The notes beneath the pieces were generated by a model. The model saw only the letters and a program-made list of their open reading frames with translations. It ran no database searches and had not been told where the DNA came from. A DNA stretch of 64,000 nucleotides from Planctomycetota bacterium (GTDB taxonomy: Bacteria > Planctomycetota > MHYJ01 > JACQXL01), in assembly GCA_043801445.1 (NCBI GenBank), contig JAZDMB010000032.1, positions 29,438 to 93,437 of the forward strand. Direction: 5' to 3'. A program made the position numbers and the translations under genes. Positions 11,859 to 55,702 of the stretch are shown here, one piece after another; position 1 is the first letter of the stretch; each line of letters begins with the position of its first letter.

Positions 11859-11990
11859 CCCGCCTGACTGGCGCCAGTCGGGCAGGTGCGCGCATCGTTT
11901 GGTTTGTTTCACCACAAAGAACACAAAGGTCACAAAGAATTTCTCTGTGTGCTCTGTGTCTCTGTGGCAAAGATTACTTGCTGAGCCAGT
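11859..11990. repeat. GC-rich palindromic element (CCCGCCTGACtggcgccaGTCGGGCAGG) plus heptad hairpin (CACAAAG x3 / CTCTGTG x3)
   Basis: Read directly from sequence. Confidence 0.8.
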
Positions 11991-32784: not shown

Positions 32785-33004
32785 GTCGGGCAGGTTAAGC
32801 TAAATACCGAGCAAAGTCGAGGTACTGATTAATCTTTTCAATCACCTTAACAAGAATAATCGGTTCTCTCGTATCTTAACCTGTTTCCATCAGGTTGCTA
32901 TTATAATACCCTCATAAGTAAAAACAAATAAAACTTTACTTTAATAATAAAGTAAGTAGAATACACTGCCTCACTACCTGTCATCATATTTCAACTGGTA
33001 AGTT

Positions 33005-36000
33005 ATGAAAAGTGATTTCGTGCATCTGCATACCCATAGCCATTATAGCTTGTTAGATGGCGCCTGCACTCTAGAGAATATAATTAACGAAGCTAAACAT
33101 CAGGGAATGAGCGCCTTAGCAATTACCGACCACGGTAACCTTTTTGGAGCAATAGAATTTTATCAAATTGCACTGAAGCATAACATCAATCCTATCGTTG
33201 GCTATGAAGCCTATATAGCCCCACGTTCTCGTAATGATAAAAAAACCACTCAACTAAGTGATGGCAAAAAAGGTTATACGGAATCAGCCTATCATCTAAC
33301 CTTACTAGCCAAGAACGAAATAGGTTATCATAATCTTATCAAATTAGCCACGATTGCCTACCTTGAAGGCTTCTATCGTAAGCCCCGTATTGATAAAGAA
33401 ATCCTTTCAATCCATAAAGAGGGGTTAATCGTATTAAGCGGTTGCTTGCAGTCGGAAATAGACCAACTTCTACTGGAAGAACAATTTGATTCCGCTTTGT
33501 CCGTTGCGACACAATATCGCGATCTTTTTGGCAATGACTTTTATTTGGAATTACAACAACACGGATTAACTGAACAAACAAAGGTTATTAAAAAATTATT
33601 GGAAATCAGTCGAACAACCGGGATACCGGTTGTTGCTACAAATGATGTGCATTATCTGAAAAAAGAAGACAGTAAAGCGCACGATATCCTCCTGTGTATT
33701 TCCACTAATAAACAAGTCAAAGACCCAACACGGTTAAGATTTTCCAGTGAAGAATTTTATTTCAAATCAGCCGAGGAAATGAAACGATTATTCTCGGAGA
33801 TTCCGCAGGCAATAGAAAATACCGTTACTATAGCCGAGAAATGTAATCTTTATCTGAATTTTAATATAGAACACCTTCCCCGTTTTACTTCGCCCGACAA
33901 TAAATCGTCTCTTGAATTCATAAAAGAATTGGCTGCGAAGGGCATTACAGAGCGTTATGGAATCAAGAATGTAGAATCTACAGACCTGCCTGACGGCAAG
34001 GCAGGTTCATCTTCATCATTAGTGATACAAAGACTTAAAGAAGAACTTGATATCATAGAAAAAAAGAAACTGATTGATTATTTCTTGGTGGTGTGGGATT
34101 TTGTCAGATTTGCCCGTGAAAATAATATTTCCGTAGGACCGGGACGAGGCTCTTCGGCAGGCAGTCTATTAGCCTATGCTTTGGGAATAACTGATATTGA
34201 CCCATTAAAATACGACCTCCTTTTTGAACGTTTTTTAAATCCCGGCCGACACGAACCTCCCGATATTGATATTGATTTTAGCCAGGCCGGCCGAGATAAG
34301 GTTATTAATTATGTCCATGAAAAATACGGTCGGGAAAATGTCTCCCAGATAATTACTTTCGGCACAATGAAAGCCCGGGCGGTTATCCGCGATGTCGGTC
34401 GCGTTATGGGAATACCTTTAACCGAAGTAGACCGTATTGCCAAAAAACTTAGCGGTATCACCTCGTTGAAAGAATCCATTAAGGGTGATCCGGAACTGAA
34501 AGATATTATTGAGAAACGAAATGATATTAAGGAACTCTTTAGTATTTCTGCCAGATTAGAAGGATTATGCCGTCATGCATCAACTCATGCCGCCGGTATT
34601 GTCATCGCCGATAAACCTCTGAATAATTATGTTCCTCTTTACGCAAGTGGCGGCATAAATACAACGCAATATCCGATGGAGGCTCTTCAAAGTATCGGAT
34701 TATTAAAAGTCGATTTACTCGGTATTGTCACTCTCGATATAATTGACAAATGCATTGAGTTAATAGCCGAAAATCGTCACGAAAAAGTGGATATAAATTC
34801 TATCCCTTTAGACAACAAAAAGACTTATGAATTACTTTCTCGTGGTGAGACAAAAGGTGTCTTTCAATTAGAATCTGCCGGCATGCGCGATATTCTGCAA
34901 AAACTTAAGCCTTCAAGGTTTGAGGATATTATCGCAGTGTTGGCGCTTTATCGGCCCGGACCCCTGCAAAGCGGATTAGTTGATAATTATATCAGATGTA
35001 CCTATCACCCCAACGAAATAAGTTATTTGCATCCAGCTCTTGAATCGTTACTTAAAGAAACCAATGGGATTATTCTGTATCAAGAGCAGGTCATGCGTAT
35101 TGCTAATAAACTCGGCGGCTTCCCCCTATCAGAAAGCGATGATTTGCGCAAGGCAATGGGTAAAAAGATACCTGAGATTATGCAAAAATACGGCGACAAA
35201 TTTATTGCCGGTGCCGTAAAAAACGGAATCCCCAAATTTATCGCAGAAAAGATATTTGAAATGATGGAATATTTCGGCGGCTATGGCTTTAACAAGTCAC
35301 ATTCTACGGCTTATTCAATGACTTCTTACAGAACAGCTTATCTTAAAGTAAATTACCCGGTAGAATTTTTGGCGGCACTATTAAGCTATAATACCGCCGA
35401 TACCGATAAATTATTAGAATATATCGAGGAATGCAGGAGACTCAATATTAAGGTTTTGCCGCCTGATATCAATAAAAGCTTCTCCGATTTTACGGTGGCA
35501 GGCAACAATATTGTATTCGGCTTAAGTGCCGTGAAAAATGTCGGCTCTAAAGCAGTCGGTTATATTATTGAAGCACGCTCAAAAGGAGGTCCGTTTACAA
35601 ATATCTATGATTTCTGCGAAAGGGTTGACCTCGGCCATGTTGATAAATTAGTAATAGAAAACCTTATTAAATGCGGAGCATTTGATTTTATATTAAAACA
35701 AAAACGGGAAGGAAAAGCTAATCGTAATCAACTCCTGAAAGGATCAGAGCAAATTATTTACATCAGCAATAAGCATCAGCTTGACAAAAGACATGGGCAA
35801 TTAAATATTATTCAATCTTCCGATAAACAATCCGATTATAGATATCCGCCGCTGCCGGATGTGCCGGAATTACCCGAAGAAGAAATTTTGCAATATGAAA
35901 AAGAAAGCCTGGGTTTCTATGTCAGCGGTCATCCCCTTCTAAAATATGAAAAGATACTCAAGGAGTTATCATCATTGTCTATAAATCAATTGCTTAAACT

Positions 36001-36526
36001 GACACCCCCTGTAGAAAATATTAAAATCTGCGGCATTATCTCGCAAGTCCAAAACGTAACGAGCAAGGGTGACAAACAAGGACGTAAAATTGTCTATTTT
36101 AAATTAAGAGACTTAACCGGTGTAATTGATACGGTTCTTTATGCTGATGAATTAAAAAAATATCATCATCTTATTAATGACAATAAAATTATCTGCATTA
36201 AAGGCAGATTGGATTCTCGTAAGGGAGAACCAATTATTAAAGTTAAAGAAGTTGCTTCCATTGAAAATGCCTACGAAATAATGCCTAACTTTGTAGCTAT
36301 TGATATTTCCTTGACCGGATTAGATGATAATATTATCAATGGGTTAAAAGATATTTTTCTGGCTCATCCGGGTAACTGCCAGGTATTCTTAAAACTAAAA
36401 ACCACTGAGAACGAAATTGCGGTAACAAAATTATCTAATAATTACTCGGTTTCCGTCTCTCCCACCTTCAGGGAGGATGTCACCGAATTAATAGGAAATG
36501 ACGCCATTAAGTTTATCCTTGAATAA
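33005..36526 (+). CDS. dnaE: DNA polymerase III alpha subunit
   Basis: PHP domain HLHTHSHYSLLDGA, polymerase core and OB fold; 1173 aa. Confidence 0.95.
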   Translation: MKSDFVHLHTHSHYSLLDGACTLENIINEAKHQGMSALAITDHGNLFGAIEFYQIALKHNINPIVGYEAYIAPRSRNDKKTTQLSDGKKGYTESAYHLTLLAKNEIGYHNLIKLATIAYLEGFYRKPRIDKEILSIHKEGLIVLSGCLQSEIDQLLLEEQFDSALSVATQYRDLFGNDFYLELQQHGLTEQTKVIKKLLEISRTTGIPVVATNDVHYLKKEDSKAHDILLCISTNKQVKDPTRLRFSSEEFYFKSAEEMKRLFSEIPQAIENTVTIAEKCNLYLNFNIEHLPRFTSPDNKSSLEFIKELAAKGITERYGIKNVESTDLPDGKAGSSSSLVIQRLKEELDIIEKKKLIDYFLVVWDFVRFARENNISVGPGRGSSAGSLLAYALGITDIDPLKYDLLFERFLNPGRHEPPDIDIDFSQAGRDKVINYVHEKYGRENVSQIITFGTMKARAVIRDVGRVMGIPLTEVDRIAKKLSGITSLKESIKGDPELKDIIEKRNDIKELFSISARLEGLCRHASTHAAGIVIADKPLNNYVPLYASGGINTTQYPMEALQSIGLLKVDLLGIVTLDIIDKCIELIAENRHEKVDINSIPLDNKKTYELLSRGETKGVFQLESAGMRDILQKLKPSRFEDIIAVLALYRPGPLQSGLVDNYIRCTYHPNEISYLHPALESLLKETNGIILYQEQVMRIANKLGGFPLSESDDLRKAMGKKIPEIMQKYGDKFIAGAVKNGIPKFIAEKIFEMMEYFGGYGFNKSHSTAYSMTSYRTAYLKVNYPVEFLAALLSYNTADTDKLLEYIEECRRLNIKVLPPDINKSFSDFTVAGNNIVFGLSAVKNVGSKAVGYIIEARSKGGPFTNIYDFCERVDLGHVDKLVIENLIKCGAFDFILKQKREGKANRNQLLKGSEQIIYISNKHQLDKRHGQLNIIQSSDKQSDYRYPPLPDVPELPEEEILQYEKESLGFYVSGHPLLKYEKILKELSSLSINQLLKLTPPVENIKICGIISQVQNVTSKGDKQGRKIVYFKLRDLTGVIDTVLYADELKKYHHLINDNKIICIKGRLDSRKGEPIIKVKEVASIENAYEIMPNFVAIDISLTGLDDNIINGLKDIFLAHPGNCQVFLKLKTTENEIAVTKLSNNYSVSVSPTFREDVTELIGNDAIKFILE

Positions 36527-36574
36527 TGCTGCGGATAAAACCCCCAAGCTTATTCTCAACTGTGATTATATGAA

Positions 36575-36592
36575 CCCCGTTAGAAACGGGGT
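36575..36592 (+). terminator. Hairpin CCCCGTTAGAAACGGGG downstream of dnaE (possible terminator; the CCCCGTTAGAAA motif also recurs at 26672 and 44428)
   Basis: 7-bp GC stem with a 3-nt loop. T-rich tract only a few nt further on. Confidence 0.3.
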
Positions 36593-36660
36593 CGCCTTTA
36601 GGTGATCGTATTTTTGTAACTGCCACTTAAAATATGCCTGAAAGGAATTAGAATTCAAAT

Positions 36661-37395
36661 ATGTCAAATAAAGCAAACAACATTTCTAACGAGGTAAACG
36701 TAAAAACATTCATTCTCGGTCCCATTCAAACCTCATGTTATTTAATCTATCCCGAACAAAACAGCGCCAATAATTCTGATGCTATAATAATTGATGTGGG
36801 TGGCGACCCGGCTGAAATGATTGACTATATTAAAAACCATAATCTCAATCCCTTATATTTAGTAAATACACACGGACATGTTGACCATATTCTTGGTAAT
36901 CCCCAGATAAAAAAGGCTTTCCCCAAAATAAAGATATGCATCCATCCTGCAGATGCGCCTATGTTACGGGAGTCTAAATATAATCTTTCTACCGAATTAG
37001 GATTTGAGTTTTCGTCACCCCAACCTGATAAGCTTCTTAATGAAAATGATATCATTGCAATGACAAGCGAAATAAGTAAAAACGAGAAGTCGGCATACCG
37101 GTTTAAAGTAATCCATCTGCCCGGCCATACCAAAGGCGGTATTGGCTTATTTTATCAGCCGGCTGATAACTCATCCGTGAAAGCCAAGAATAGCCAGCCG
37201 CTCCTTTTCAGCGGAGATGCTATTTTCGCCGGAAGTATCGGCAGAACCGATTTTCCAGGCGGGTCGCATTCGGAACTAATCAATAATATCAAGGAGAAGG
37301 TCTTTGTCCTGCCGGATAATACAATTGTTTATCCGGGACACGGACCGGCTACAACGGTCGGCGACGAAAAACATCTCAATCCATTCTTTAATTGA
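36661..37395 (+). CDS. MBL-fold metallo-hydrolase (hydroxyacylglutathione-hydrolase-like)
   Basis: HGHVDH and HLPGHTKGG metal-binding motifs. Confidence 0.8.
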   Translation: MSNKANNISNEVNVKTFILGPIQTSCYLIYPEQNSANNSDAIIIDVGGDPAEMIDYIKNHNLNPLYLVNTHGHVDHILGNPQIKKAFPKIKICIHPADAPMLRESKYNLSTELGFEFSSPQPDKLLNENDIIAMTSEISKNEKSAYRFKVIHLPGHTKGGIGLFYQPADNSSVKAKNSQPLLFSGDAIFAGSIGRTDFPGGSHSELINNIKEKVFVLPDNTIVYPGHGPATTVGDEKHLNPFFN

Positions 37396-37515
37396 TTTAT
37401 AGATTTCAAATAATCAAGAAAAAAGAGGAACACGAATGGAACGAATATCCTTTGGGAATAGGAATCTTAACTGGTGATTTCTTATTCGTGTGATTCGCCT
37501 TAATTCGTCCTATTC

Positions 37516-38493
37516 GTGTTTATACTTTCCTATATCGTGAAAAATAAGCAATTAACTGTTTCTCACCTGTTATCGGAACGTCCGGGGAGACAACTTTTAT
37601 CACTGCATAACTCGGACCGAATCGATAAAGAAATAATTCTATCCGATGTCCTTAAATGCGAACGAGTTGACTTATACAAAAAACCGGAAAGAATAGTTAC
37701 TCTTCCGGAACAGCTTCGTTTCCGTAATCTATTACAAAAATATGAACAAGGCTGTCCTGTAGCATATCTTACCGGTCATAAAGAATTTATGTCTCTTGAC
37801 TTTATCATAACCAAAGACGTTCTTATTCCACGCCCTGAAACAGAATTATTAGTTGAAGAAACTCTAAAATGCCTGGCGACCCCAGTCAAAACGAGTCTTT
37901 CGGGCTGGGGTCAGGCGGGCATCGGGCATAGTTACAAACCTCGTCTCGTTAGGGATAAAACAAAGATAACCATTTTAGATGTAGGAACGGGTTCGGGTAA
38001 TATCGCCATATCAATAGCAAAATATTGTTCTTTCGGAAAGTTACAAATATTTGCATCGGACATATCTAAAAAGTCATTAAAAATAGCATCCTTGAACGCC
38101 CGGCTTCATAAAGTCCAAAAACAAATCGGATTTTATTGCGGTGATTTATTTGAGGCATTTAATAATTTATCATTAAGAAATAAAACGGATATCATTGTAT
38201 CCAATCCTCCTTATATATCGGATAATGATTTCCACGAGTTACCGATAAGCGTCAGGAAATACGAACCGCAGATTGCTTTATTCAGCGGACCTGATGGATT
38301 ATCGCTTATACGAAAAATAATCAGTCAATCACTCCATTATCTCAAACCTCAAGGATACCTGTTATTGGAATTGGGCTTGGGTCAATCAAAAAAGGTTTTA
38401 AACATTATGAAATCTACCAACAAATTTAAGGATATAAAAGTACTGGTTGATTATAATAAAATCCCCCGTGTTCTTTGTGCCAGACGCAATTAG
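37516..38493 (+). CDS. prmC: Release-factor glutamine methyltransferase PrmC/HemK with an in-frame GC-rich insertion
   Basis: DVGTGSGNIA motif I and IIVSNPPYIS (NPPY). A ~30-aa extra segment, SLSGWGQAGIGHSYKPRLV, is encoded by a degenerate GTCAGGCGGG palindromic element at 37893-37945. Confidence 0.85.
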   Translation: MFILSYIVKNKQLTVSHLLSERPGRQLLSLHNSDRIDKEIILSDVLKCERVDLYKKPERIVTLPEQLRFRNLLQKYEQGCPVAYLTGHKEFMSLDFIITKDVLIPRPETELLVEETLKCLATPVKTSLSGWGQAGIGHSYKPRLVRDKTKITILDVGTGSGNIAISIAKYCSFGKLQIFASDISKKSLKIASLNARLHKVQKQIGFYCGDLFEAFNNLSLRNKTDIIVSNPPYISDNDFHELPISVRKYEPQIALFSGPDGLSLIRKIISQSLHYLKPQGYLLLELGLGQSKKVLNIMKSTNKFKDIKVLVDYNKIPRVLCARRN

Positions 38494-38706
38494 CTCAAAG
38501 ATAAATCCGCCACCAAGACGCCAAAAAAATAGTACTGGAGTACTTAGTACTAAAGTACTTCTTAGTGCCTTTGTGTCTTTGCCCCTACGGGACTTCTTCA
38601 CTGCTGTATCTCGTTAGGGATTGTGGCAAATTATCATAAATTTTAATGATTTTCTTGACGCTCTGAACTTATAGTGTTATTACCTTATAACTTAATATAG
38701 TTACTT

Positions 38707-38979
38707 ATGCAAGGAGGTGTATTAATGCCGACAACACAAGAAATCCAGGATAAGGTTATTGAGATTGTTTGCAAACAATTAGGTGTTGCCAAAGAAAAAG
38801 TATCAATCGCCACGTCATTTGTTAACGACTTGGGAGCTGATTCTCTCGATACCGTAGAATTAGTTATGGATTTGGAAGAATCATTCGGGATGTCCATTCC
38901 CGATGAAGAAGCCGAAAAGATCCAGACCGTTAGTGATGCGGTGAAATATATTGAGAACGCATTAGCGAGTAAAACTTAG
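38707..38979 (+). CDS. acpP: Acyl carrier protein
   Basis: [17 protein letters not shown]. Likely start at the Met at 38725 (MPTTQEIQ), preceded by AAGGAGG. Confidence 0.93.
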
Positions 38980-38989
38980 TCATTTATAA

Positions 38990-39045
38990 TAGGGCTTTAG
39001 TTAGTTTACAAATAATGTGGCTACTAAAGCCCTAATTAATTTATG
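38990..39045 (+). terminator. Rho-independent-type terminator after acpP
   Basis: 12-bp inverted repeat TAGGGCTTTAGT...ACTAAAGCCCTA followed by ATTAATTTAT. Confidence 0.5.
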
Positions 39046-39071
39046 GTTCGGGAGCCCGTCAGGAATATAAT

Positions 39072-40313
39072 ATGCAGAAACGAGTTGTCATTACCGGTTT
39101 AGGTTCGATTACTGCCCTGGGACTAAATCACGAAGAGATCTGGCAGTCGCTTTTAGCCGGCAAGAGCGGCGCGGCAAAAATCCAGTCTTTTGATACCACC
39201 GGCTTTGACGTCAATTTCGCCTGCGAAGTAAAGAATTTCAACTCTGATGCCTATTTCCCTGCGCCGGTTGCCAAGAGATCTGACCGTTTCGCGCAATTCG
39301 GACTCGCCTGCGCTATCCAGGCGGTCAAAGACGCCAATATTGATTTTACCAAATTTAATACGCAGCGTATCGGCTCCATTATCGGTTCCGGTATCGGCGG
39401 ATTTGTTGAATTCGGGGAACAGCAGACCAGATTAATCCAGAAAGGACCATCCCGTGTTTCGCCATTCACTATACCTAAAGTAATGATGAATTCGGCAGCC
39501 GGCCAGATTGCTATCAATTTCGGATTAAAAGGACCAAATTTTGCCGTGGCAAGCGCCTGCGCTTCTTCTAACCACGCCATCGGCATGGCATTCAAAATAA
39601 TCCAATCCGGAATGGCTGATGTCATAATTACCGGAGGCGCCGAAGCCGCCATTACCCCATTAGGCATCGCCGGTTTTGCATCGCTCAAAGCGCTGTCCAC
39701 CCGCAATGACGCGCCTGAAAAAGCATCGCGTCCTTTTGACAAAAACCGCGATGGTTTTGTTATGGGCGAAGGCAGCGGGATTTTAATAATGGAATCATTG
39801 GAATTTGCGCTGGCCCGGGGCGCCAGAATCTATGCCGAAATGCTCGGTTTCGGAATGAACGACGACGCTTATCATATTACCGCACCTGACCCCGAAGGCG
39901 ACGGCGCTATGATGACTATGAAACTCGCTTTAGACGATGCCGGACTTAAACCGCAGGATGTTTCATATATCAATGCCCACGGCACATCCACACTCTATAA
40001 CGATTTAACCGAAACCAAAGCCATAAAAAAACTATTCGGCGAACACGCCAAAAAAGTGGCTATCAGCTCGACCAAATCGATGATAGGCCATTTACTGGGC
40101 GGTTCCGGTTCGGCTGAACTCGTCGCCACCATATTAAGCATCAGAGACAATATCGTCCATCCCACCATCAATTACGAAACCCCTGACCCGGAATGCGACC
40201 TGGATTATGTCCCGAATACAGCCAGAAAAATGGAAGTAAAAATAGCGCTTTCTAATTCATTCGGCTTCGGCGGACATAATGCCACTCTGGCAGTGGGAAA
40301 ATACCACTCGTAA
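39072..40313 (+). CDS. fabF: 3-oxoacyl-ACP synthase II
   Basis: Ketosynthase fold throughout, with active-site Cys in AVASACASS and the HGTSTLYND / GHLLGGSG motifs. Confidence 0.93.
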   Translation: MQKRVVITGLGSITALGLNHEEIWQSLLAGKSGAAKIQSFDTTGFDVNFACEVKNFNSDAYFPAPVAKRSDRFAQFGLACAIQAVKDANIDFTKFNTQRIGSIIGSGIGGFVEFGEQQTRLIQKGPSRVSPFTIPKVMMNSAAGQIAINFGLKGPNFAVASACASSNHAIGMAFKIIQSGMADVIITGGAEAAITPLGIAGFASLKALSTRNDAPEKASRPFDKNRDGFVMGEGSGILIMESLEFALARGARIYAEMLGFGMNDDAYHITAPDPEGDGAMMTMKLALDDAGLKPQDVSYINAHGTSTLYNDLTETKAIKKLFGEHAKKVAISSTKSMIGHLLGGSGSAELVATILSIRDNIVHPTINYETPDPECDLDYVPNTARKMEVKIALSNSFGFGGHNATLAVGKYHS

Positions 40314-41899: not shown

Positions 41900-42859
41900 G
41901 TGGCTACGAATTTTCTTTCTATTATGACAAAATCTCCCTGCGAAAGATATTACGACCGCGTGGCTCATTCGTATGACGACTCCTACTCCACGAACCCTGA
42001 CGGGTTCTCTGAGCGAGGACCCGGAACGGGCAAAAACCCTTATTGGGATTTCTATAACGCAGTCACTTGGCATAACCTGAAAAAATATCTGCCCCAATTG
42101 AAAGGCAGACGGATATTGGATATCGGCGGCGGCACGGGCCTGTGGGCTTTGAAACTCGCTAAATCAGGTTTTGAGGTTACGCTGGCGGATATCTCCCAGA
42201 AGATGCTGGACATGGCTCTTAACAAAGCAGAAAAAGCGAACCTCTCATCAAAGATTACATTTGTCAAAGCGGATATCTGCGACCTATCGGTGTTTGAAGA
42301 GAAAACCTTTGATATGGTATTAGCCCAGGGCGACCCGCTCTCGTGTTGTGAAAATCCTTATCAGGCAGTCAAGGAAGCCTATCGCATACTCAAAGACAAG
42401 GGATTCTTTATCGCCTCGGTGGACAATAAATACAGCGGGATGAAAGTGTTTTTAGAACAAAATAAGATAGATGAATTGGAAGAATTCATCAAAAGCGGCA
42501 AGACCAAATGGTTCACCAATGACATCAACGAACAATACCCGATTACCTATTTCACGCCGGCCCAATTAAAGAAATTATTTACCGGAAACGGATTTGAGGT
42601 ATTGACAATCATCGGCAAGACCGTATTACCTATCAGGCAGAATAGCGTCCCGATGCTCCGATACGGGACGCTCCGTATCCGCTCCGATGCTCACGAGCGG
42701 AGCGCCCCATATCCGAAGGCATCGGGACGAAGGCATCGGAGCGAGATATTAAAAGACCGTTCAGCATTTGACAGATTATTGAAATTGGAATTGCAACTCC
42801 ATTCCGAAGAAGCATTATTAGGTTCAGCCGGCCATCTGGAAATCACCGGGCGAAAGTAG
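41900..42859 (+). CDS. Class I SAM-dependent methyltransferase with a repeat-encoded C-terminal extension
   Basis: Motif I ILDIGGGTGLWALKLAKSGFEVTLADIS. The last ~70 codons overlap nested CCCGATGC-type palindromes at 42640-42745. Confidence 0.75.
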   Translation: MATNFLSIMTKSPCERYYDRVAHSYDDSYSTNPDGFSERGPGTGKNPYWDFYNAVTWHNLKKYLPQLKGRRILDIGGGTGLWALKLAKSGFEVTLADISQKMLDMALNKAEKANLSSKITFVKADICDLSVFEEKTFDMVLAQGDPLSCCENPYQAVKEAYRILKDKGFFIASVDNKYSGMKVFLEQNKIDELEEFIKSGKTKWFTNDINEQYPITYFTPAQLKKLFTGNGFEVLTIIGKTVLPIRQNSVPMLRYGTLRIRSDAHERSAPYPKASGRRHRSEILKDRSAFDRLLKLELQLHSEEALLGSAGHLEITGRK

Positions 42860-43056: not shown

Positions 43057-44352
43057 TTAAATATTATCCCCGCAGACCCAGCCTGTAGAAAAAGCCGCCT
43101 GCATATTATATCCGCCTGTCTTGGCATCTATATCTATTACCTCGCCTGCGAAAAAGAGTCCCCTGACAATCCTTGACTCCATTGTCTTTGGGTTTATCTC
43201 CTTTGTATCCACCCCGCCTCTGGTAACTATCGCCTCGCTGATAGGCATCACGCCTTCAACCGTTAATCTCAACCCGAACAACCCCTCTATCAGACTTTTA
43301 CGTTCCTCGGCAGTAACCTGATTTGCGCCCTTATTACCATCCAACTTGCAATATTCAATAAACCGCGCGATTAGACCGCCGGGCAGAAGGTTCTTGAATA
43401 TATTCTTTATACCCTTATTCGGAGCCGCCTTGAATTCGCGTAACAACCTCGCATCAAGTATTTTATAATCCAGCGCGGGCTTAAAATTAATGGATATTGA
43501 CACCTTATTCTCCTGCCCGACCTTTCGGTCCCCGCCCGGATGAACATCCGTTCGGACGGGGTTCGGGCGGGTAAGTGCCAGTGCGTCATATACCGCGGCG
43601 CTTATGTCAAGCACAATCGGACCTGATATTCCGAAATGAGTAAAAAGCATCTCTCCGAACCGCTCATCAACCGGCTTATTATCAGCGAATAGCGTCAGAC
43701 GCACGTTCTTGAGCGAGATACCCTGCCAATCATTGATAAACCGCTCCTTGATGCGCACCGCAGACAGCGCCGGTTTCAAGGAAACTATCCGGTGCCCTAA
43801 TTTCTCAGCCAGTTTATAACCGTCGCCGGTTGAGCCGGTCTGCGGATACGAAAGCCCGCCTGTGGTAATGGCGATATGCGATGACGGAAATAACTTACCT
43901 GAAACTGTTTGAAGACCCTTTACACGTTTGCCCTCTGCAACCACATCCTTCACCCGTTCGCCTGACAGGATTACGATATTCTTATTATTTAATTTAGATT
44001 TCAGGACATCCAGGATATCGGCTGAAAGATTACTTATTGGGAATACGCGGCCGCCCCGTTCGGTCTTGAGTTTCAGACCCGCATCCTCAAAGAATGAAAT
44101 CAGGTCGGTGTTAAAGAACCTGGCGAAAGCGTTCCTCAGGAAATCGCGTGATTCCGAAAACTCAGCCAAAAACCCGTTGATATCGCCTGAATTAGTAAGA
44201 TTACAGCGTCCCTTACCGGAGATGAGCAGTTTCCGGCCCGGAGACTCATTGCGTTCAATCAAGAGGACTTTCCTGCCCCGTTCCGAGGCTCGGATAGAAG
44301 CCATCATCCCGGCCGGACCGGCGCCGATAACAATCGCATCAAACTGATTCAT
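43057..44352 (-). CDS. HI0933-family FAD-dependent flavoprotein (BaiN / aminoacetone-oxidase-like)
   Basis: DAIVIGAGPAGMMASIRASERGRKVLLIERNESPGRKLLISGKGRCNLTN. A nested GC-rich palindromic element is read through in-frame at 43512-43572. Confidence 0.85.
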   Translation of the reverse strand: MNQFDAIVIGAGPAGMMASIRASERGRKVLLIERNESPGRKLLISGKGRCNLTNSGDINGFLAEFSESRDFLRNAFARFFNTDLISFFEDAGLKLKTERGGRVFPISNLSADILDVLKSKLNNKNIVILSGERVKDVVAEGKRVKGLQTVSGKLFPSSHIAITTGGLSYPQTGSTGDGYKLAEKLGHRIVSLKPALSAVRIKERFINDWQGISLKNVRLTLFADNKPVDERFGEMLFTHFGISGPIVLDISAAVYDALALTRPNPVRTDVHPGGDRKVGQENKVSISINFKPALDYKILDARLLREFKAAPNKGIKNIFKNLLPGGLIARFIEYCKLDGNKGANQVTAEERKSLIEGLFGLRLTVEGVMPISEAIVTRGGVDTKEINPKTMESRIVRGLFFAGEVIDIDAKTGGYNMQAAFSTGWVCGDNI

Positions 44353-44883
44353 AGGAAAAGTTAACCACTCCCGACAAAGTCTGTCGGGATCCCGTTGTAG
44401 CCCACTTGGATAGCCCAGCGGGAAAAGACATTCACCCCGTTAGAAATTATTGTTACAGGGTAATGATAAGAATAATATAAAGTTTGTTAGTGTAATACTA
44501 TTTATTTTAGATATTTATTTCTTCGGATGCAGTCTTCTTCTTGCTACCCTGTGCCATAGGCACCTGCCCGACCGTCAGGCGGGGATCCGCCTCTGGCGGA
44601 AACGAGGCAGGGCACTCAAAGGATTAAAACTATTTTTTTTCCTTGACGCCCCAGCGGACTAGCAGACAGGTTTATCTGTTCATCAGTTTACTCACTTTCT
44701 ATCTCTACAACTGGATATAAGTAACGGGTTTGTGACTTATCCGGCAGATATGAAAAATGGCGGTTTTGTATAAACTCTTGATTTGAAATGAATTAAGAAA
44801 AATAAAAAAATATGCAAAAATCCGAAAATAGCGCTCTCTGTTACTTATGGGAACCTATCCACTACGGGATTCTACCCTACCTA

Positions 44884-45062
44884 CCTATGGTTATATGGGG
44901 TATATCCACTAGTTAGTAGGGATACCTCCTATGGTTATACGGGATACCTCCTATGGTTATATGGGATACTACCTATGGTTATATGGCATACTCCCTATGG
45001 TTATATGGGATACCACCTATGGTTATTAGGGATACTACCTATGGTTATATGGGATACCTCTA
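44884..45062. repeat. Direct tandem array A, ~8 x 22 bp (GGGATACCTCCTATGGTTATAT)
   Basis: Read directly from sequence. Bounded by CCCTACCTACC (44874-44884) and its inverse GGTAGGTAGGG (45088-45098). Confidence 0.9.
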
Positions 45063-45139
45063 CTGGAGGGTACGATATCCCCCCTGGGTAGGTAGGGTAA
45101 TATAGGGGGGAGGTAGGGGGATGGGTAATTTTCTTATTT

Positions 45140-45462
45140 TTATCAGGGCTATATTTCTCGGCAGTCGGGTATATGTTCCTTGGATTGGCAGGATATGTTT
45201 CCGGGCTGAAAGGCATCTGTTTCGTGGCTCAATGGTGTATGTTTCCCGGCTCAAAGGCGTATATTTCCGTGCCGAAAGGGGTATGTTTATTACTGATAAC
45301 TAGTATGTATCCCGGCTCAGAGGGGTATGTATTTTGGCTTAACCCTCTATGTTTCTTGGGTATAAGGTATATATTTCAGGACTAAAGAGGGTATATTTCT
45401 TGGCTTAGGGGAGTATGTTTATTGGCTCAAGGGGATATGTTTCGTGGCTTGGAGGTATGTGA
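45140..45462. repeat. Direct tandem array B, ~14 x 22 bp (GGCTCAAAGGGGTATGTTTCNT)
   Basis: Read directly. Ends in GGGATACCCTACCCCCCACCACCCC. Confidence 0.9.
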
Positions 45463-45617: not shown

Positions 45618-46748
45618 ATGAAAACAGATAATCATAAATTCAAGATAATAGGGTTGCCGATTTTAATTGTTAGTGTTAGCATAATGTTCTGCTTTTTTAT
45701 ATCCAATTATAATTATGCAACTGAAGATAAAAAAGTGGAAGTTTTAACTGTTCCACCATCACAGTTTTGTGAATCTTATCCGGTTGCTTGCAGGTATGTT
45801 GAATGGATTCGTCTTAAGCTCAAAGGGAAATATGATATGGATAAATACGGAAGAGACAAATTAAAATTACTACATATAGTCCATGTGGTATTCACAGAAA
45901 TAGATACCGCTGGTAGTACTATGAACCAAAAAGAAGGATGCTACACGGATTTCGTAGCTTCGATAGGATTAAGAAGTAGTGTAGAAAAATTCGTTGATAA
46001 GATTTTCAATAAGAACGATTCTTCTCCTGAAGAAATAAGATTCCTTGAGATTTTTAATGAAGAGATTTATCGTGGCGGACCTGCACTTGAATATTTATGG
46101 CCAACACCTATGCGGAAATCTACTAAAGAGGAATATCAAGACAGGATAAAACAGGCTTGGCAAAAACTTAGGACTATTCAAAATGAACTATCAAATCTTA
46201 TAAGTGATACGCTTGTTACCACTATAAAAATAGATTCTCCTAATAGAAAACTTCTTCCTTTGATGTATCTGCTTCAAGCATATAATTACGGCTGGCTGGA
46301 AGAATACAAGCAAGCCATAGCAACATATGACAAAATAATAAATTATGATATGGAAGGATTTGACGACTATAAATTAACCGCGATGTTTAATAAAGCAAGA
46401 TGTGTGGGAGCATTATCAAAGGATTATGAGATACAAAATAGATATGGAGGCCTATGGAATTTTATGCCTTATAAAACATGGCATTGGTATAAAGACAAAG
46501 AAGGGAATCATATATCAAATTATTATTATGATATAGCTGTTCTATCGCGGTGTAAAGAAGCCAATGCGGTTTATGAAGAAATTTTAAAGAATTACAAACA
46601 TCTTTCAAAGACAAGAAGGGCTATTTTTATATGGATACAGGAAATAATGGCTGGGAAACCATTGCCTGAGTTATACTCTTCTCCTCCAATAGAAGACGCT
46701 AACAGCGATAAACCAGAACAACCCGAAAACAAAGATACCAATAAATAA
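45618..46748 (+). CDS. Hypothetical membrane-anchored protein
   Basis: Single N-terminal TM (IIGLPILIVSVSIMFCFFI). 376 aa with no recognisable motif. Sits behind a strong sigma70-like promoter and the double tandem array. Confidence 0.6.
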   Translation: MKTDNHKFKIIGLPILIVSVSIMFCFFISNYNYATEDKKVEVLTVPPSQFCESYPVACRYVEWIRLKLKGKYDMDKYGRDKLKLLHIVHVVFTEIDTAGSTMNQKEGCYTDFVASIGLRSSVEKFVDKIFNKNDSSPEEIRFLEIFNEEIYRGGPALEYLWPTPMRKSTKEEYQDRIKQAWQKLRTIQNELSNLISDTLVTTIKIDSPNRKLLPLMYLLQAYNYGWLEEYKQAIATYDKIINYDMEGFDDYKLTAMFNKARCVGALSKDYEIQNRYGGLWNFMPYKTWHWYKDKEGNHISNYYYDIAVLSRCKEANAVYEEILKNYKHLSKTRRAIFIWIQEIMAGKPLPELYSSPPIEDANSDKPEQPENKDTNK

Positions 46749-47310: not shown

Positions 47311-48708
47311 TTATGCAACCACAGTCTGGTTACGTCCTTTTTGTTTCGCTTTGTAGAGCGCTTTATCCGTTTTAGAAATAAGTTCCTTGAAATCATCCCC
47401 ATCATTAGGTTTGTATTCCGCTACACCCAAACTGATAGTTATTTTTATCTCCTCGCCGGTAGATAAAATAAATAGGTTGTTTTCTATTTTTCGACGCAGT
47501 CTTTCGGCAAAGGTTTCTGCCTGTGTCTTTGAGGTCTGGGGCAGGATAATGGCTATCTCTTCGCCTCCGTAGCGATACGCAGTTGAGGTCGCTCTCAGGG
47601 TCTGCTTTAATATCGATGCAATCTCCTTAAGCACCATATCGCCGGCCGGATGACCATAGGTGTCATTGACATTTTTAAAGTGGTCTATATCAAACATGAC
47701 CAGCGCTAAATCAGTCTTGTAACGTTTGCTGATTTCCATATATATGGGCAATTCATTAAAGAAATGGCGTTTGGTATAAAGGGAAATCAGGCTGTCGGTA
47801 ACGGCGCGGTTGTATAGCATCGGAGTTTTGACGGCTAAAGCCAGGACCCGGGCCAATTCCATCAGGTTATCCTGCAGATGCCGGATATCCTCTTCTTTCT
47901 GGTTGCCCGAGCGGATAGTTTTTATTTTGAGGACGCCGACCGATTCATGGTCTGCCATTAACGGAATAGTAAAATCTATTGTATCACCATTGGCACTGAA
48001 AAAAAGACGGTTGTGCTCCAACGCTTCATTAACATTGTGCCAATCTATGGTTCGCCCCGTTCCGGGTTCCCCGCCTGACCTTTCCAGTCGGGCAGGTCGC
48101 TCAGAGAACCCGCTCGTGCTATGCGGAGCGCTACGCAGAGCATAGTCAGGGTTCGTGGAGTCGGCTAATTCCTCTTCAAATATGGTATTATTGCCCTTGC
48201 GCTGCGCTTGCGGAATCAGTTTGCCCGAAATTTCGTCCTTCAGAAAGATAGTAATTTCGCCTCCTGCATCGCTACTTTTGCCATCAGAAGAACCGGGCCC
48301 GCCTGACCATGTGTCCAGTCGGGCAGGCATAAAATGGGCGATGACCTCTAATGATTTGCTGACGATATTCTGGAAATCAACATCGTGGGTAAGGATAAGA
48401 CTTATTTCACGCGTTGCGGAAAGCAAATCAATCCGCGATGAAAGCATCTTATTCTGACTGAAGAATTCTTCCTGATTTTTATCAGATACGACGACTTTGG
48501 TTTTAAGCGCTTTATTAAAATCTTTAAGAATAAAAACGGCAATAACCAGACCGACGCTATAAACAGCATTAAGGAATGCCAGAAAAACCAAGGGAGTCGA
48601 CAAGAAATCAATTGCTTTGTTTGTAGATAAGCAATAAACTAGCCAGAGCAGAATCGTGATGAGAGGAATAGTGACAAGAAGAATTATAATGAGTACCTGT
48701 TTGAGCAT
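47311..48708 (-). CDS. Membrane-anchored diguanylate cyclase (GGDEF, GGEEI active site) carrying two in-frame palindromic-element insertions
   Basis: N-terminal TM helices. C-terminal GGDEF domain with RYGGEEIAII and DTYGHPAGD. The central low-complexity stretch SGGPGSS...PARLERSGGEPGTGRT is encoded by elements at 48066-48098 and 48297-48327. Confidence 0.85.
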   Translation of the reverse strand: MLKQVLIIILLVTIPLITILLWLVYCLSTNKAIDFLSTPLVFLAFLNAVYSVGLVIAVFILKDFNKALKTKVVVSDKNQEEFFSQNKMLSSRIDLLSATREISLILTHDVDFQNIVSKSLEVIAHFMPARLDTWSGGPGSSDGKSSDAGGEITIFLKDEISGKLIPQAQRKGNNTIFEEELADSTNPDYALRSAPHSTSGFSERPARLERSGGEPGTGRTIDWHNVNEALEHNRLFFSANGDTIDFTIPLMADHESVGVLKIKTIRSGNQKEEDIRHLQDNLMELARVLALAVKTPMLYNRAVTDSLISLYTKRHFFNELPIYMEISKRYKTDLALVMFDIDHFKNVNDTYGHPAGDMVLKEIASILKQTLRATSTAYRYGGEEIAIILPQTSKTQAETFAERLRRKIENNLFILSTGEEIKITISLGVAEYKPNDGDDFKELISKTDKALYKAKQKGRNQTVVA

Positions 48709-48779: not shown

Positions 48780-48804
48780 CCTGCCCGACCATTCGGGCGG
48801 GGAG
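48780..48804. repeat. GC-rich palindromic element (intergenic, GGDEF to clpC)
   Basis: CCTGCCCGACcatTCGGGCGGGG. Confidence 0.75.
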
Positions 48805-52224: not shown

Positions 52225-53703
52225 CTACCTACCCGCCTGACCGGTGTCAGTCGGGCAGGCATTACGCAGGCGTTGTAATAATTTACGGCGGAGTCGCTCC
52301 AGATAAAAACCGCCGACAAGTAGAATAATCCCGCCACCAATAAAGAATAAACTACGTTCCATCATCCCCCAGCCATATTCACAATAACGGGTAATGAGGT
52401 TAATCACAAAAAACACCAGCCCGATATAAATAAATGACGGTTCCGCATTAAAATAGCCCACCAAAATGGTTCCAATAATCAGAGCAAATGATACCATATT
52501 AAAAAGGATAGCGTAATAAGTTATTGCCGGCGAGTTGAAATACCACCGGGAATCAGCCATAATCTTTAAAGGATAATTAATAGTAAAAAACAAGAAGATG
52601 AGCAGAAAAACAAGGGAAAGCATCTCGTACCCCTCGGGGTACCGGTAACTAAAAGATTTGTTTCTGCTTTGACGGAATAAAATATTAACAAGCGCAATTA
52701 TCAGGGCAACCATACTTAATATCGTAAGACACCACAAAATATTGGGCATGGATTTTATGGGATGCTTGCTAAATTCATAAACAAAATCAGTGATAACCCC
52801 CTTGAATGATAAAATATAAAGAATAATAAGTATGGTTAGTATACCCAAAAGTTTATACCAAAAAGCAATTCTAATTGTCTTAAGGGAAAAATAATTGAGA
52901 TAACCCGCGACATAAACTAAAATCCCAAAAATAAAATACAGCACTACAAAAATAAGGTAACTACAATGAAAACTGGGGTCTGTTGATAAGAGCCAATTGG
53001 AAGCAAGAGTACCTAACCAGACTCCTACTCCTAATATATTTAAGACAATAACGAATGCTGAAAGACGGCGGTAACTAAATAAAAAGATTAATCCCATAAA
53101 AACAAGATAGTAGTATACCGGCTTTGTGAATTCGCTGACATATAAAACACTCCATGCGGTAAAAAGGACGGAAGATAATGCAAGGATTGGAATAAGTCCG
53201 CTTACCCAAGCCATCAGAAGAGTACCGATTCCCCAGAACATAATAGCATCCGGTAATTTCCCTCCTAAATGATAGATTTGAGATATTAAAAGAATGCCTG
53301 CACCGAAAATAATAGCGCCGAGAAAAATAAGAGATGCCCCTAAGGAGGGATAATTGCCTCGTTTATAACGCCAATAATAACCCAGAAAATATGAGCCGAT
53401 TAAAGAAACGAATATAGTTCCCAATTTGAGACTATTCGCCATCTTCACCCAGTTGGCGGCAAAAAAGATGATAATTCCTGCCCCTATCAGTAAGACGCCA
53501 AGAATAGTCAGAATCCGAATAAGTTTGCTATGAGTAGGCGAGCCACCAAGGGCGGTTTCTGCAAGAACATACCGCTGCCGCAAAACCTCAGCTTGCTTGT
53601 CATCAATCAGTTTTTCATCCTGCCAGTCTTTAAATTCGTCTAATAACCAGGTATAGAATTTTTTCGGATAAGACCTTTGTTTATTATTGGGCTGTTCTTT
53701 CAT
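52225..53703 (-). CDS. Polytopic membrane protein (DUF2157/DUF4401-like), partner of the GDYXXLXY protein
   Basis: About 12 TM helices, N-terminal cytoplasmic helix, conserved pairing with the GDYXXLXY gene. The last ~10 codons (NACPTDTGQAGR) lie in a palindromic element at 52231-52259. Confidence 0.7.
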   Translation of the reverse strand: MKEQPNNKQRSYPKKFYTWLLDEFKDWQDEKLIDDKQAEVLRQRYVLAETALGGSPTHSKLIRILTILGVLLIGAGIIIFFAANWVKMANSLKLGTIFVSLIGSYFLGYYWRYKRGNYPSLGASLIFLGAIIFGAGILLISQIYHLGGKLPDAIMFWGIGTLLMAWVSGLIPILALSSVLFTAWSVLYVSEFTKPVYYYLVFMGLIFLFSYRRLSAFVIVLNILGVGVWLGTLASNWLLSTDPSFHCSYLIFVVLYFIFGILVYVAGYLNYFSLKTIRIAFWYKLLGILTILIILYILSFKGVITDFVYEFSKHPIKSMPNILWCLTILSMVALIIALVNILFRQSRNKSFSYRYPEGYEMLSLVFLLIFLFFTINYPLKIMADSRWYFNSPAITYYAILFNMVSFALIIGTILVGYFNAEPSFIYIGLVFFVINLITRYCEYGWGMMERSLFFIGGGIILLVGGFYLERLRRKLLQRLRNACPTDTGQAGR

Positions 53704-54625: not shown

Positions 54626-55702
54626 ATGGAAAAAAAGTTAGGCCGTGGTCTTGAAGAATTATTTAAGGATATAAATGTTGAGCAACCTCTTCCCGCCCAC
54701 GAAGACGAGGCTCACCTCCGACAACAGGTCGAACCTGCAAATAAACCTGTTATTATGCCTCATGAAATAACTCCTTCTCCAGAGGCGGATCCCCGCCTTA
54801 CAATCGGGCAGGCGCCTATGGCACAGGATAGCAAAAAGAAGACTGCATCAGAAAAAATAGAACGTTATTTATCCGAAACTGCAAGTGAAAATCTCCCTAC
54901 AGGTATTATGCTGTTGAAAACAGACCAACTTATCCCTAATCGTTTTCAGCCGCGCAAGTCATTTGATAGGGAATCATTAACTGAACTTATCGAATCAATC
55001 AAATCTGCCGGAGTTCTCCAGCCAATATTAGTGAGGCAATCCGGTAATTATTATGAAATCGTGGCAGGTGAAAGACGTTGGAGAGCATGCCTCGAACTTA
55101 AAATAGCCTCTGTCCCAGCGATTGTCAAAGAAGTAAATGACCAAAAGATGTTAGAATGGGCACTTATAGAAAACACCCAGCGAAAAGACCTTAATGCTAT
55201 TGAACGAGCTCGAGCGTATAAAGAATTAATGACATTTTTTAACCTTACTCAGGAAGAAATAGCTAAAAGGGTTGGTCTTGACCGCGCTACAGTCTCAAAT
55301 TTCATTAGACTGCTTGATCTTCCTAATGAAGTGCAGGATGAAGTTGCCAAGAAATCTATAACAACTACTCATGCCAGGAGCCTATTATCTATAAATGACC
55401 CTACCCTCCAAGTAAAACTCTGCCAGAGGATAAAAAGAGAGGGAATGTCAGTAAGACGTCTTGAATACATAATGAGATGGTTAAGAAGACGGAATATACC
55501 ACCTATAACCACCCCTCCATCATCTGCCGAACAACTTCATATAAGAGAGATAGAGGATAGGTTGAGGCGTAAGTTTAATACCAAGACCACTATATATACC
55601 ACTGATAATAAACAGGGTAAAATAATCATATCATTCTATTCTGTAGATGACTTTCAACGTATCCTTGATAAATTAGACCAAATACCTGATGTTTCTCAAT
55701 AG
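54626..55702 (+). CDS. parB: Chromosome partitioning protein ParB/Spo0J with an extended low-complexity N-terminal region
   Basis: LGRGLEELF start, ParB boxes (LIPNRFQPRK; VAGERRWRA), HTH, C-terminal dimerisation domain. About 80 extra N-terminal residues include a GC-rich palindrome at 54793-54826. Confidence 0.9.
   Translation: MEKKLGRGLEELFKDINVEQPLPAHEDEAHLRQQVEPANKPVIMPHEITPSPEADPRLTIGQAPMAQDSKKKTASEKIERYLSETASENLPTGIMLLKTDQLIPNRFQPRKSFDRESLTELIESIKSAGVLQPILVRQSGNYYEIVAGERRWRACLELKIASVPAIVKEVNDQKMLEWALIENTQRKDLNAIERARAYKELMTFFNLTQEEIAKRVGLDRATVSNFIRLLDLPNEVQDEVAKKSITTTHARSLLSINDPTLQVKLCQRIKREGMSVRRLEYIMRWLRRRNIPPITTPPSSAEQLHIREIEDRLRRKFNTKTTIYTTDNKQGKIIISFYSVDDFQRILDKLDQIPDVSQ

Follow-up and report, generated by a model that had tools for sequence, protein, structure and literature searches.

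The 64,000-nucleotide stretch of DNA analysed here (the window), from a Planctomycetota metagenome-assembled genome, contains an imperfect palindrome, CCTGCCCGAC-loop-GTCAGGCGGG, in 14 clear copies and about four degenerate ones. We consider it likely that this palindrome is a non-autonomous selfish DNA hairpin, which is mobilised in trans by a putative enzyme and is kept where it is harmless. The element is GC-rich and 21-30 bp long, and its conserved arms of 10-12 nt, CCTGCCCGAC(TG) and (CG)GTCAGGCGGG, enclose a variable loop.

Sequence and structure of the hairpin family

A first-pass annotation of this DNA had counted at least 12 GC-rich inverted repeats, with a consensus of which ours is the reverse complement. 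Each copy that it listed exists, and the copies share a tight consensus when aligned, which was one of the two tests by which the annotation could have been refuted. Those that it did not include lie at 4721 (M6 peptidase), 15824 (TPR protein), 33985 (DnaE), 44563 (intergenic), 16596 and 4773. The arm CCCGCCTGAC, with at most one mismatch, occurs 15 times in the window compared with 1.8 expected, and 15 occurrences were reached in none of 100 shuffles. A covariance model (CM), searched without filters and trained on an alignment that included several of the loci it recovered, identified 14 distinct loci at E <= 0.015, at 4721, 8454, 8558, 9464, 11859, 15824, 32765, 33985, 44563, 48070, 48298, 48780, 52232 and 54792. 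Weaker or degenerate copies are found at 4773, 16596, 37872-37919 and 43512-43571, the last being nested.

Three positions of the arms, 3, 7 and 11, are not complementary (T.G, C.A and T.G on one strand). The T-opposite-G pairs remarked on earlier are present, but these three non-Watson-Crick positions are a fixed signature of the family and not random decay. The loop, on the other hand, is different in nearly every copy. A pairing register shifted by 4 nt, which contains Watson-Crick pairs only (DNA parameters), was considered and rejected, as degenerate copies show compensatory changes that speak for pairing over the full length. In a copy from a related genome (L025), CCTGTCCGAC...GTCAGACGGG, the C5-G pair is replaced by T5-A, and this compensatory change supports full-length pairing. 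The window gave no Rfam match at gathering thresholds, with just chance-level matches (E > 5) around the focal copies, and nothing specific emerged when the literature was searched for the sequences of the arms or for an element of this description.

Inserts in the GGDEF gene

Our alignments revealed that the two copies in the GGDEF gene differ in their architecture. Insert 1 is the canonical 30-bp element (48298-48327, minus strand, 37.4 bits), which reads CCCGCCTGACCATGTGTCCAGTCGGGCAGG and encodes PARLDTWSGG. Insert 2, as delimited by protein and DNA alignments with orthologues, is a 105-bp composite of 35 amino acids (48061-48165, minus strand). It is built on a second family of palindrome, into which two further inserts are nested, namely a 27-bp copy of the element (48070-48096, CCCGCCTGACCTTTCCAGTCGGGCAGG) and another hairpin (48112-48144). 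The uninterrupted form of this backbone is the GC-rich family-2 palindrome (STNPDGFSERGPGTG) at 41987-42030 on the plus strand, within the methyltransferase ORF 41900-42859. The first-pass annotation had placed two copies in this gene, and its focal positions were exact; insert 1 is an exact element, whereas insert 2 comprises three nested palindromes.

[quoted passage not shown] At the DNA level, insert 1 is a precise 30-bp insertion, ATG[element]CCC, without target-site duplication. In the predicted structure, residues 131-148 (insert 1) and 183-219 (insert 2) have pLDDT values below 50, and both inserts form coil between secondary-structure elements. The loop location that the annotation had proposed to examine by structure prediction is therefore what the model displays.

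Copies in other genes, at gene ends and between genes

Among the matches listed, the exact copies inside long ORFs have a length divisible by three in 13 of 13 cases, compared with 45 of 99 other copies. Five frames of the hairpin are free of stop codons, three of which are used by intragenic copies, and the inserts add 7-10 small or flexible residues of the forms PARL..SGG, LPD..GQAG or RLT..VGQ to predicted disordered loops or domain linkers. The Pfam domains downstream of the inserts are intact, which bears out the proposal that the copies are read through in-frame. The reading frame is preserved by all intragenic copies, so nothing indicates that the hairpin is bypassed or removed from the mRNA.

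The N-terminal linker of an M6-peptidase/Ig-repeat protein carries a 30-bp element (4721-4750, plus strand, 41.6 bits) that encodes PARLDIRSGG and matches the GGDEF copies in strand and frame, as well as a degenerate copy (4773-4799, minus strand, PRPNAGGGQAG) with a weak CM match (E = 1.6). In a TPR protein gene, a 27-bp copy (15824-15850, minus strand, 29.2 bits) encodes PAQPGCSGG, which interrupts one 34-residue repeat at the turn between helices A and B; the other repeats lack these 9 residues. The 21-bp copy in dnaE (33985-34005, plus strand, E = 0.015) encodes LPDGKAG; it sits in the variable linker that follows the PHP domain, at a site between the two blocks aligned with 2hpi. An enlarged, degenerate copy of 48 bp in prmC (37872-37919, plus strand), recognised by alignment with L025, belongs to a 26-residue insert relative to the solved homologue 1sg9 that separates the N-terminal and methyltransferase domains. 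The HI0933-like flavoprotein gene contains a nested double copy (43512-43571, plus strand; inner copy 43531-43560), and the protein has an 18-residue insert relative to the solved homologue 2i0z. In PrmC, in the HI0933-like protein and in the TPR repeat register, the inserted peptides are thus missing from the comparable sequences, as in the GGDEF protein. The same holds outside the window for the GrpE protein of a Saccharibacteria (Patescibacteria) genome (L017), in which an exact 21-bp element encodes LPDGQAG, a segment that two orthologues lack. A further degenerate copy is present in ORF 16490-17851 (16596-16625, minus strand, LPAEALAKAG, E = 0.12). The 21-bp copy in parB (54792-54812, minus strand, 26.9 bits), in which the opposite strand is read (PRLTIGQA), lies in the variable, non-conserved N-terminal region, and for that reason the alignment of orthologues defines no empty site.

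Other copies are located at gene ends. A copy with a duplicated 5' arm forms part of the 3' end of ORF 9253-9531 (9454-9493, plus strand; 34.9 bits for 9464-9493), and a 28-bp copy provides the last codons of the DUF2157 gene (52232-52259, minus strand, 44.2 bits; CPTDTGQAGR and stop). A copy with an extra arm is placed at the 5' end of moxR or immediately before it (32751-32794, minus strand; 31.9 bits for 32765-32794). In the latter protein, residue 89 is the first of the AAA_3 domain and residue 30 is a second Met; this copy, formerly listed as intragenic, exists but is probably upstream of the true start codon. The intergenic copies comprise a 21-bp copy 16 nt past the stop of ORF 7827-8438 (8454-8474, plus strand, 26.5 bits), a 22-bp copy (8558-8579, plus strand, 27.7 bits), a canonical 28-bp copy that is the top CM match (11859-11886, minus strand, 44.3 bits), a 21-bp copy inside an 88-bp repeat common to locus L064 (44563-44583, plus strand, 30.4 bits), and a copy flanked by clpB and the GGDEF gene, to both of which it is antisense (48780-48801, plus strand, 28.7 bits).

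Recent gains and insertion sites

Comparison with the relative L025, of about 89% nucleotide identity, provides insights into the history of the copies. L025 carries two copies that are missing from the window, and two further sites are common to both but diverged. One of the copies missing from the window is a precise 30-bp insert in prmC, TCTTT[element]C. At the site of the degenerate 48-bp copy of the window in prmC, L025 has the canonical 30-bp form, and its dnaE gene has an orthologous 27-bp copy. More distant syntenic relatives have zero copies in 21 kb each. A target-site duplication was looked for at four pairs of empty and filled sites and none was found. Taken from these alignments, the element is shown to insert as a whole unit with exact boundaries and without target-site duplication, and its gains in the lineage of the window are shown to be recent.

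Among the matches listed, the flanks of 104 copies display neither a GTAG or CGTC tag nor a strongly conserved target nucleotide; the only signals are a T at position -2 in 52% of them and, on the right side, a weak G-A-T. A general rule by which the element would enter the loops of hairpins already present was rejected, the enrichment being modest (flanking complementarity of at least 6 nt in 9 copies compared with 5.1 expected).

Copies persist between genes, at gene ends and, within genes, only with a length divisible by three and a frame without stop codons, and new copies also enter older palindromic inserts, giving rise to composites. A putative enzyme acting in trans may recognise the folded single strand; by analogy with single-strand transposition of the IS200/IS605 or REP/RAYT type, the conserved mismatches could allow it to discriminate between strands. 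The putative enzyme and the hairpin may have spread together horizontally. The diversity of the loops is not predicted by simple copy-and-paste unless loops mutate fast or master copies are many.

Search for a mobilising enzyme

Among the matches listed, no candidate mobilising gene lies beside the hairpin at any of the approximately 120 copies, and a motif scan and clustering of the ORFs of these loci revealed no RAYT (PF01797) gene flanked by it. A Pfam scan of the ORFs around the copy cluster at 8.4-12 kb found no transposase, integrase or reverse transcriptase. Over all loci, the recurrent neighbours belong only to common housekeeping and regulatory families, sigma factors and Crp-like regulators among them. 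A PD-(D/E)XK_3 gene at 7424-7816, considered as a recurrent neighbour, was seen again in only one other locus. The sole Y1 (HUH-type) transposase gene that the motif scan found nearby, among the matches listed, is that of L017, at a distance of 540 bp from a copy. It belongs to a family of homologues from the candidate phyla radiation (CPR) that is always located in the grpE-dnaK gap, and the related genomes examined contain either no copy in 21 kb (L136) or one degenerate copy, in dnaK (L132 and L133). Given this conserved synteny, it was rejected as a RAYT link.

These results bear on a rather unlikely alternative, in which the hairpin would be an ordinary REP family, with an atypical hairpin, served by a RAYT, that is, a domesticated Y1 HUH transposase, as in the REPs and REPINs of E. 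coli and Pseudomonas. REPs and REPINs are likewise imperfect palindromes of 20-40 bp, with high copy numbers, often 3' of genes and occasionally in-frame within ORFs (PMC3733652, PMC6006769), and our element is short, GC-rich, locally dense and often situated just 3' of genes. It is also presumed that they move in the form of single-stranded hairpins and do not duplicate the target, and PMC6006769 reports Y1 classes with 'atypical secondary structures', namely subclass 2.6 in Bacteroidetes and class 3 in Planctomycetes. However, the hairpin is missing from the REP table of that study, neither a GTAG nor a CGTC tag occurs in its flanks, and no Y1 gene flanked by it lies in about 0.9 Mb of loci among the matches listed, the CPR gene keeping its position in relatives with zero or one degenerate copy. 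Moreover, the 10-12 bp stem has three periodic non-Watson-Crick positions, and while REPs are normally lineage-specific, these arms are identical between phyla.

Possible RNA function and association with tRNA genes

We regard it as improbable that the hairpins are mainly functional RNAs, such as mRNA 3' stabilisers, attenuators or protein-binding sites, held by selection and only secondarily mobile. Of 18 copies in the window, 13-14 have as their sense strand the one that folds better as RNA (-15 to -17 compared with -12 to -14 kcal/mol), and several copies lie just past stop codons (8454, 52232). This orientation excess is small, though, and part of it arises because one frame of the other strand contains a TGA stop codon. 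Copies within unrelated proteins, differences in copies between close relatives, the lack of a T-tract after the intergenic copy at 8454 and the absence of a matching Rfam family also argue against a primary RNA function.

In Bacteroidota, the hairpin is often found within partial duplicates of tRNA genes, in the T- or D-loop. The hairpin could accordingly be part of small mobile elements that target tRNA genes, for example Bacteroidota GIY-YIG mini-genes, with the solo copies as by-products, although we give this reading only a slim chance. Among the matches listed, T-loop-like flanks occur on both sides of 9 of 111 copies compared with 0.005 expected. Partial tRNA duplicates with copies in their T- or D-loops lie beside intact tRNA genes in four loci (L018, L021, L028, L057), and L061, a locus in which no intact tRNA was called, has a tRNA-like 3' fragment of a similar kind. 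A tRNA lies within about 350 bp of the hairpin in seven loci, and in L057 and L028 a GIY-YIG ORF is located between the tRNA and the fragment. Nevertheless, GIY-YIG genes were found in only 2 of about 120 loci among the matches listed, the window with its 14-18 copies has no tRNA gene and no detected GIY-YIG gene, and the flanks of most copies are unrelated. Under the preferred reading of a trans-mobilised selfish hairpin, its association with fragments of tRNA genes is a hint of a targeting mechanism that has gone unrecognised.

Comparison with other small repeats

The mobile GC clusters, and related GC-rich palindromes, of yeast and fungal mitochondria are also GC-rich hairpins that spread in AT-rich genomes and are sometimes coding and nested, but they are organellar, eukaryotic and unrelated in sequence. 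PATEs, which derive from IS200/IS605, and MITEs are likewise small, non-autonomous, structure-bearing and mobilised in trans. PATEs, however, have two distinct end hairpins and a fixed tetra- or pentanucleotide target, whereas our element is a single hairpin with variable left flanks; MITEs have terminal inverted repeats and a target-site duplication, and no duplication accompanies the hairpin at the four site pairs. PARCELs (palindromic amphipathic repeat coding elements) consist of units of roughly 100 bp in tandem arrays within surface proteins. PMC2996958 describes them as a palindromic coding repeat that is horizontally distributed in diverse microbes. Our hairpin, in contrast, is a solitary insert of 21-30 bp in unrelated housekeeping genes.

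The first-pass annotation had likened the copies to Rickettsia palindromic elements (RPEs), reportedly described by Ogata et al. in 2000. RPEs are roughly 100-150 bp long and are not known outside Rickettsia. They too are palindromic selfish DNA, found in-frame in functional genes as peptide segments missing from orthologues and also between genes (PMC3733652). The likeness is one of behaviour only (multiple copies, in-frame, absent from orthologues, in loops or linkers), as the hairpin is much shorter, has its fixed mismatch signature and occurs in several phyla.

Distribution and consequences

The identical hairpin is present in low-GC genomes of Bacteroidota, Planctomycetota and Patescibacteria, and also in genomes labelled Marinimicrobia and Elusimicrobia. 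A scan across the collection found it in more than 116 stretches, with 104 of the exact copies in loci below 50% GC, compared with about 1 to 17 chance matches that we estimate for such composition in the whole collection. The flanks of most copies are unrelated to one another.

It is very improbable that we are dealing with a low-complexity protein motif or an assembly artefact rather than a DNA element: the peptides resemble many linkers in their high content of G, P, A and S, and most of the sequences come from metagenome-assembled genomes, but the hairpin is found in cultured isolates such as Gillisia limnaea DSM 15749 and Pedobacter soli DSM 18609, and orthologous copies are common to two independent assemblies. 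Since its DNA is read in three frames and on two strands, and intergenic copies exist as well, the hairpin is an element at the DNA level.

We tentatively advance the possibility, still a doubtful one, that the hairpin is among the smallest mobile elements to spread horizontally, through at least three and probably at least five phyla, with a conserved code of wobbles and mismatches, putative machinery other than a RAYT, a preference for tRNA-like loops (the T- and D-loops of tRNA gene fragments) and a continuous addition of short disordered peptides to housekeeping proteins. Gene-invading palindromes of the Rickettsia type are not peculiar to obligate intracellular bacteria, but extend to free-living Planctomycetota, Bacteroidota, CPR bacteria and others. 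As one conserved hairpin is involved, and not a set of lineage-specific repeats, the putative enzyme could be traced by correlating hairpin counts with gene content. The hairpin also repeatedly gives rise to small insertions in conserved proteins, such as DnaE, PrmC, GrpE and ParB, which matters for protein evolution and for phylogenetics based on alignments. Gene calling is affected as well, because the hairpin creates spurious N-terminal extensions and altered C-termini. An association with phages was rejected, the pattern being found on only 7 viral contigs; one of these contigs carries three head-to-tail 21-bp copies.

Results

Re-reading of the window sequence bore out the description given by the first-pass annotation for its two focal GC-rich palindromes. 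In the window, whose GC content is 41%, the arm CCCGCCTGAC occurs 15 times with at most one mismatch, against 1.8 occurrences expected, and none of 100 dinucleotide-preserving shuffles of the window reaches this count. A two-arm pattern search combined with an unfiltered covariance-model search resolved 14 separate loci with E <= 0.015; the training alignment of the model (R1) already contained several of them. The same searches showed that all copies listed in the annotation are real, and they added six others, at 4721, 4773, 15824, 16596, 33985 and 44563. The copies at 4773, 16596, 37872-37919 and 43512-43571 are degenerate, and that at 43512-43571 is nested.

In the orientation designated strand B, the element reads CCTGCCCGAC(TG)-loop-(CG)GTCAGGCGGG; strand A is its reverse complement and corresponds to the initially proposed consensus. 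The loop measures 1-16 nt and the entire element 21-36 nt, usually 21-30, and loops are distinct in almost all copies. The arms are imperfectly complementary, with differences at positions 3, 7 and 11 (T.G, C.A and T.G on B; C.A, T.G and C.A on A). Since this mismatch pattern is kept across copies, it represents a family signature rather than decay. RNA folding favors the B strand over A by 2.5-3 kcal/mol. DNA folding parameters also allow a register displaced by 4 nt, but the compensating changes in degenerate copies agree with the full-length register; an example of such a change is C5-G to T5-A in the copy CCTGTCCGAC...GTCAGACGGG of L025, a contig of a different Planctomycetota MAG.

The GGDEF protein is 100% identical to the database protein P0001; its host is a Planctomycetota MAG, and the named relatives include Candidatus Brocadiia. 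Its two extra segments, previously read as insertions, are indeed missing from 16 of 16 aligned orthologues; one of these, P0002, shows 88% identity in this alignment and 79% by BLASTP. In the DNA, insert 1 (48298-48327, minus strand) corresponds exactly to the 30-bp element, which lies between ATG and CCC. Insert 2 (48061-48165, minus strand; 105 bp) is composite: its backbone, a second palindrome family that is uninterrupted at 41987-42030 within a methyltransferase ORF, is itself host to two nested inserts: the loop contains the 27-bp element (48070-48096), and another hairpin lies at 48112-48144. In an AlphaFold model from the orthologue alignment, of moderate overall confidence (mean pLDDT 72, pTM 0.40), the inserts are coil (residues 131-148 and 183-219, pLDDT < 50), while the GGDEF domain and the elements flanking the inserts are confidently folded. 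The second family, CCACGAACCCTGACGGGTTCTCTGAGCGAGGACCCGGAACGGG, encodes STNPDGFSERGPGTG and is read in-frame in both the methyltransferase ORF and the GGDEF gene.

L025 is ~89% identical to the window over 32882-40199. Its prmC gene carries a precise 30-bp copy missing from the window (TCTTT[element]C, without duplication), and an extra copy upstream of dnaE is likewise missing from the window. The copy in dnaE, which occupies a variable segment following the PHP domain, and the first prmC site are common to both and have diverged through in-frame indels. More distant syntenic relatives (ParAB-ClpB-GGDEF) have no copy within 21 kb each. Against solved structures, inserts are seen in the HI0933-like protein (18 residues, compared with 2i0z) and in PrmC (26 residues, compared with 1sg9), where the insert separates the N-terminal and methyltransferase domains. 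In the TPR protein, PAQPGCSGG interrupts one 34-residue repeat at the helix A/B turn, and EAKRSPEELRG, encoded by a different palindrome, interrupts another. GrpE encoded on a Saccharibacteria contig (L017) contains an added LPDGQAG between FEP and EEDLG, specified by an exact 21-bp element; this segment is missing from two CPR orthologues. The ParB orthologues of two hairpin-free relatives (L120:5124-6218 and L122:5433-6467) have, in the conserved N-terminal domain, a 7-residue insert (KSQAKSG/KSPTKSG) followed by QAG/QAV. It resembles the hairpin-encoded GQAG peptide and might derive from an old copy that has since eroded.

When each GTDB species was scanned for the exact pattern in one genome, the matches listed comprised >116 stretches; the large majority of the exact copies (104) were in loci below 50% GC. 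By our estimate, the whole collection would contain ~1 chance match at 40% GC and ~17 at 50% GC, and chance may well account for the matches in high-GC genomes (Streptomyces, for example). The hosts include the cultured Bacteroidota Gillisia limnaea, Pedobacter soli, Parafilimonas terrae, Winogradskyella ouciana, Psychroflexus curvus, Perlabentimonas gracilis and Pinibacter aurantiacus, as well as several Planctomycetota MAGs, four Neomarinimicrobiota MAGs, Elusimicrobia, Ignavibacteria and Patescibacteria, the MAG labels being those of the database records. Only 7 viral contigs have the pattern; one (L125:10329-10391) has the minimal 21-bp element three times, head to tail. Loop variants group by lineage: TGGCACCG-like loops are recurrent in Planctomycete copies, and Bacteroidota have recurrent loops resembling TGCGTCA or TGACGTCG, a pattern that fits copying within lineages.

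Among 112 exact copies in loci below 50% GC, 13 fall within long ORFs; each of the 13 has a length that is a multiple of three, as against 45 of the 99 others. They use three frames only: B0 (five copies, PAR..SGG), B1 (four, LPD..GQAG) and A2 (four, RLT..VGQ). Frame A0 is interrupted by a TGA stop codon. Of 18 window copies, 13-14 have B as the sense strand, a bias that is only suggestive and is partly due to the stop codon.

The Bacteroidota copies of the hairpin show a strong association with tRNA genes. T-loop-like flanks on both sides (GGTTC|hairpin|GAWTCC) accompany 9 of 111 copies, against 0.005 expected, and in seven loci the hairpin is no more than ~350 bp from a tRNA, where by a rough estimate about one such locus would arise by chance. 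At three loci (L021:6850-7297, L057:1595-1982 and L018:7805-7956), partial 3' duplicates with the hairpin in the T-loop come after an intact tRNA gene; a fourth (L061:308-335) has a similar tRNA-like 3' fragment with no intact tRNA called in the locus. At L028:4679-5165, two 5' tRNA-Arg fragments with the hairpin in the D-loop adjoin an intact tRNA gene. A small GIY-YIG nuclease-like ORF lies between the intact tRNA and the hairpin-bearing fragment at L057:1613-1867 and L028:4872-5105, an arrangement that may represent a tRNA-targeting mini mobile element. The L057 ORF, of about 85 aa, has its stop codon within the hairpin loop. At L021, a tRNA-Leu 3' fragment plus terminator is present in three tandem copies, each with a hairpin. 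No tRNA gene was found in the window.

Discussion

Our comparisons show that the element inserts as a whole unit with exact ends, that it has been gained recently and that copies nest. No target-site duplication was seen at four empty/filled pairs. We propose that the mobile form of the element is a folded single strand, recognized by a trans-acting enzyme for which the asymmetric mismatches would distinguish the strands, as in the IS200/IS605 and REP/RAYT systems. Given that identical arms occur in unrelated phyla at non-orthologous sites, the hairpin would spread horizontally together with its cognate enzyme.

The likeness to Rickettsia palindromic elements (RPEs) suggested by the first-pass annotation holds as behavior, namely in-frame insertion into genes whose orthologues lack the segments. 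REPs within ORFs have already been catalogued (PMC3733652). The present element stands apart in being very small, in keeping a conserved mismatch code, in having no GTAG or CGTC tag in its flank profiles and no RAYT found next to it and, above all, in carrying an identical sequence across phyla. The hairpin is not in the published REP table, and no description of it was found in the open-access literature, which does not prove that none exists.

The search for the proposed enzyme did not find it, and no recurrent mobile-element gene was seen among the ORFs neighboring hairpin copies. The one Y1 gene near a copy was not taken as evidence of a link, its position being explained by conserved synteny: in Patescibacteria, a Y1 transposase-like gene (PF01797; L017:4712-5425, L132/L133:10001-10642, L136:10001-10705) is conserved between grpE and dnaK, and looks like a domesticated, vertically inherited gene. 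A small PD-(D/E)XK_3 nuclease-like gene (PF13366; window 7424-7816) is situated upstream of two intergenic copies of the hairpin, at a distance of ~640 bp, and only one other hairpin locus (L044) has it.

Several families of gene-invading palindromes appear to be present in the genome. Other GC-rich hairpins, with GTCCCGA or CGGAGCG motifs, lie at 4121-4146, 15278-15310, 42644-42672, 42680-42704 and 44369-44389; one encodes the 11-residue TPR insert, and two are inside ORF 41900-42859. An 88-bp repeat, 93% identical between window 44529-44602 and L064:2449-2535 (a different contig of the related MAG), includes the hairpin together with another small one, GATCCGCCTCTGGCGGA; the L064 copy is within a long ORF. 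Another palindromic repeat, cgtaaccgc.gatttggcggatta...ttaatccgtttaatc.gc, has the hairpin at its center in L007:6390-6480 and is without it in window 8660-8730. Three 22-bp tandem-repeat arrays of 8.3, 4.3 and 2.7 copies (44878-45450) occupy a 1.2-kb stretch without ORFs of >=80 aa, upstream of the gene at 45618-46748.
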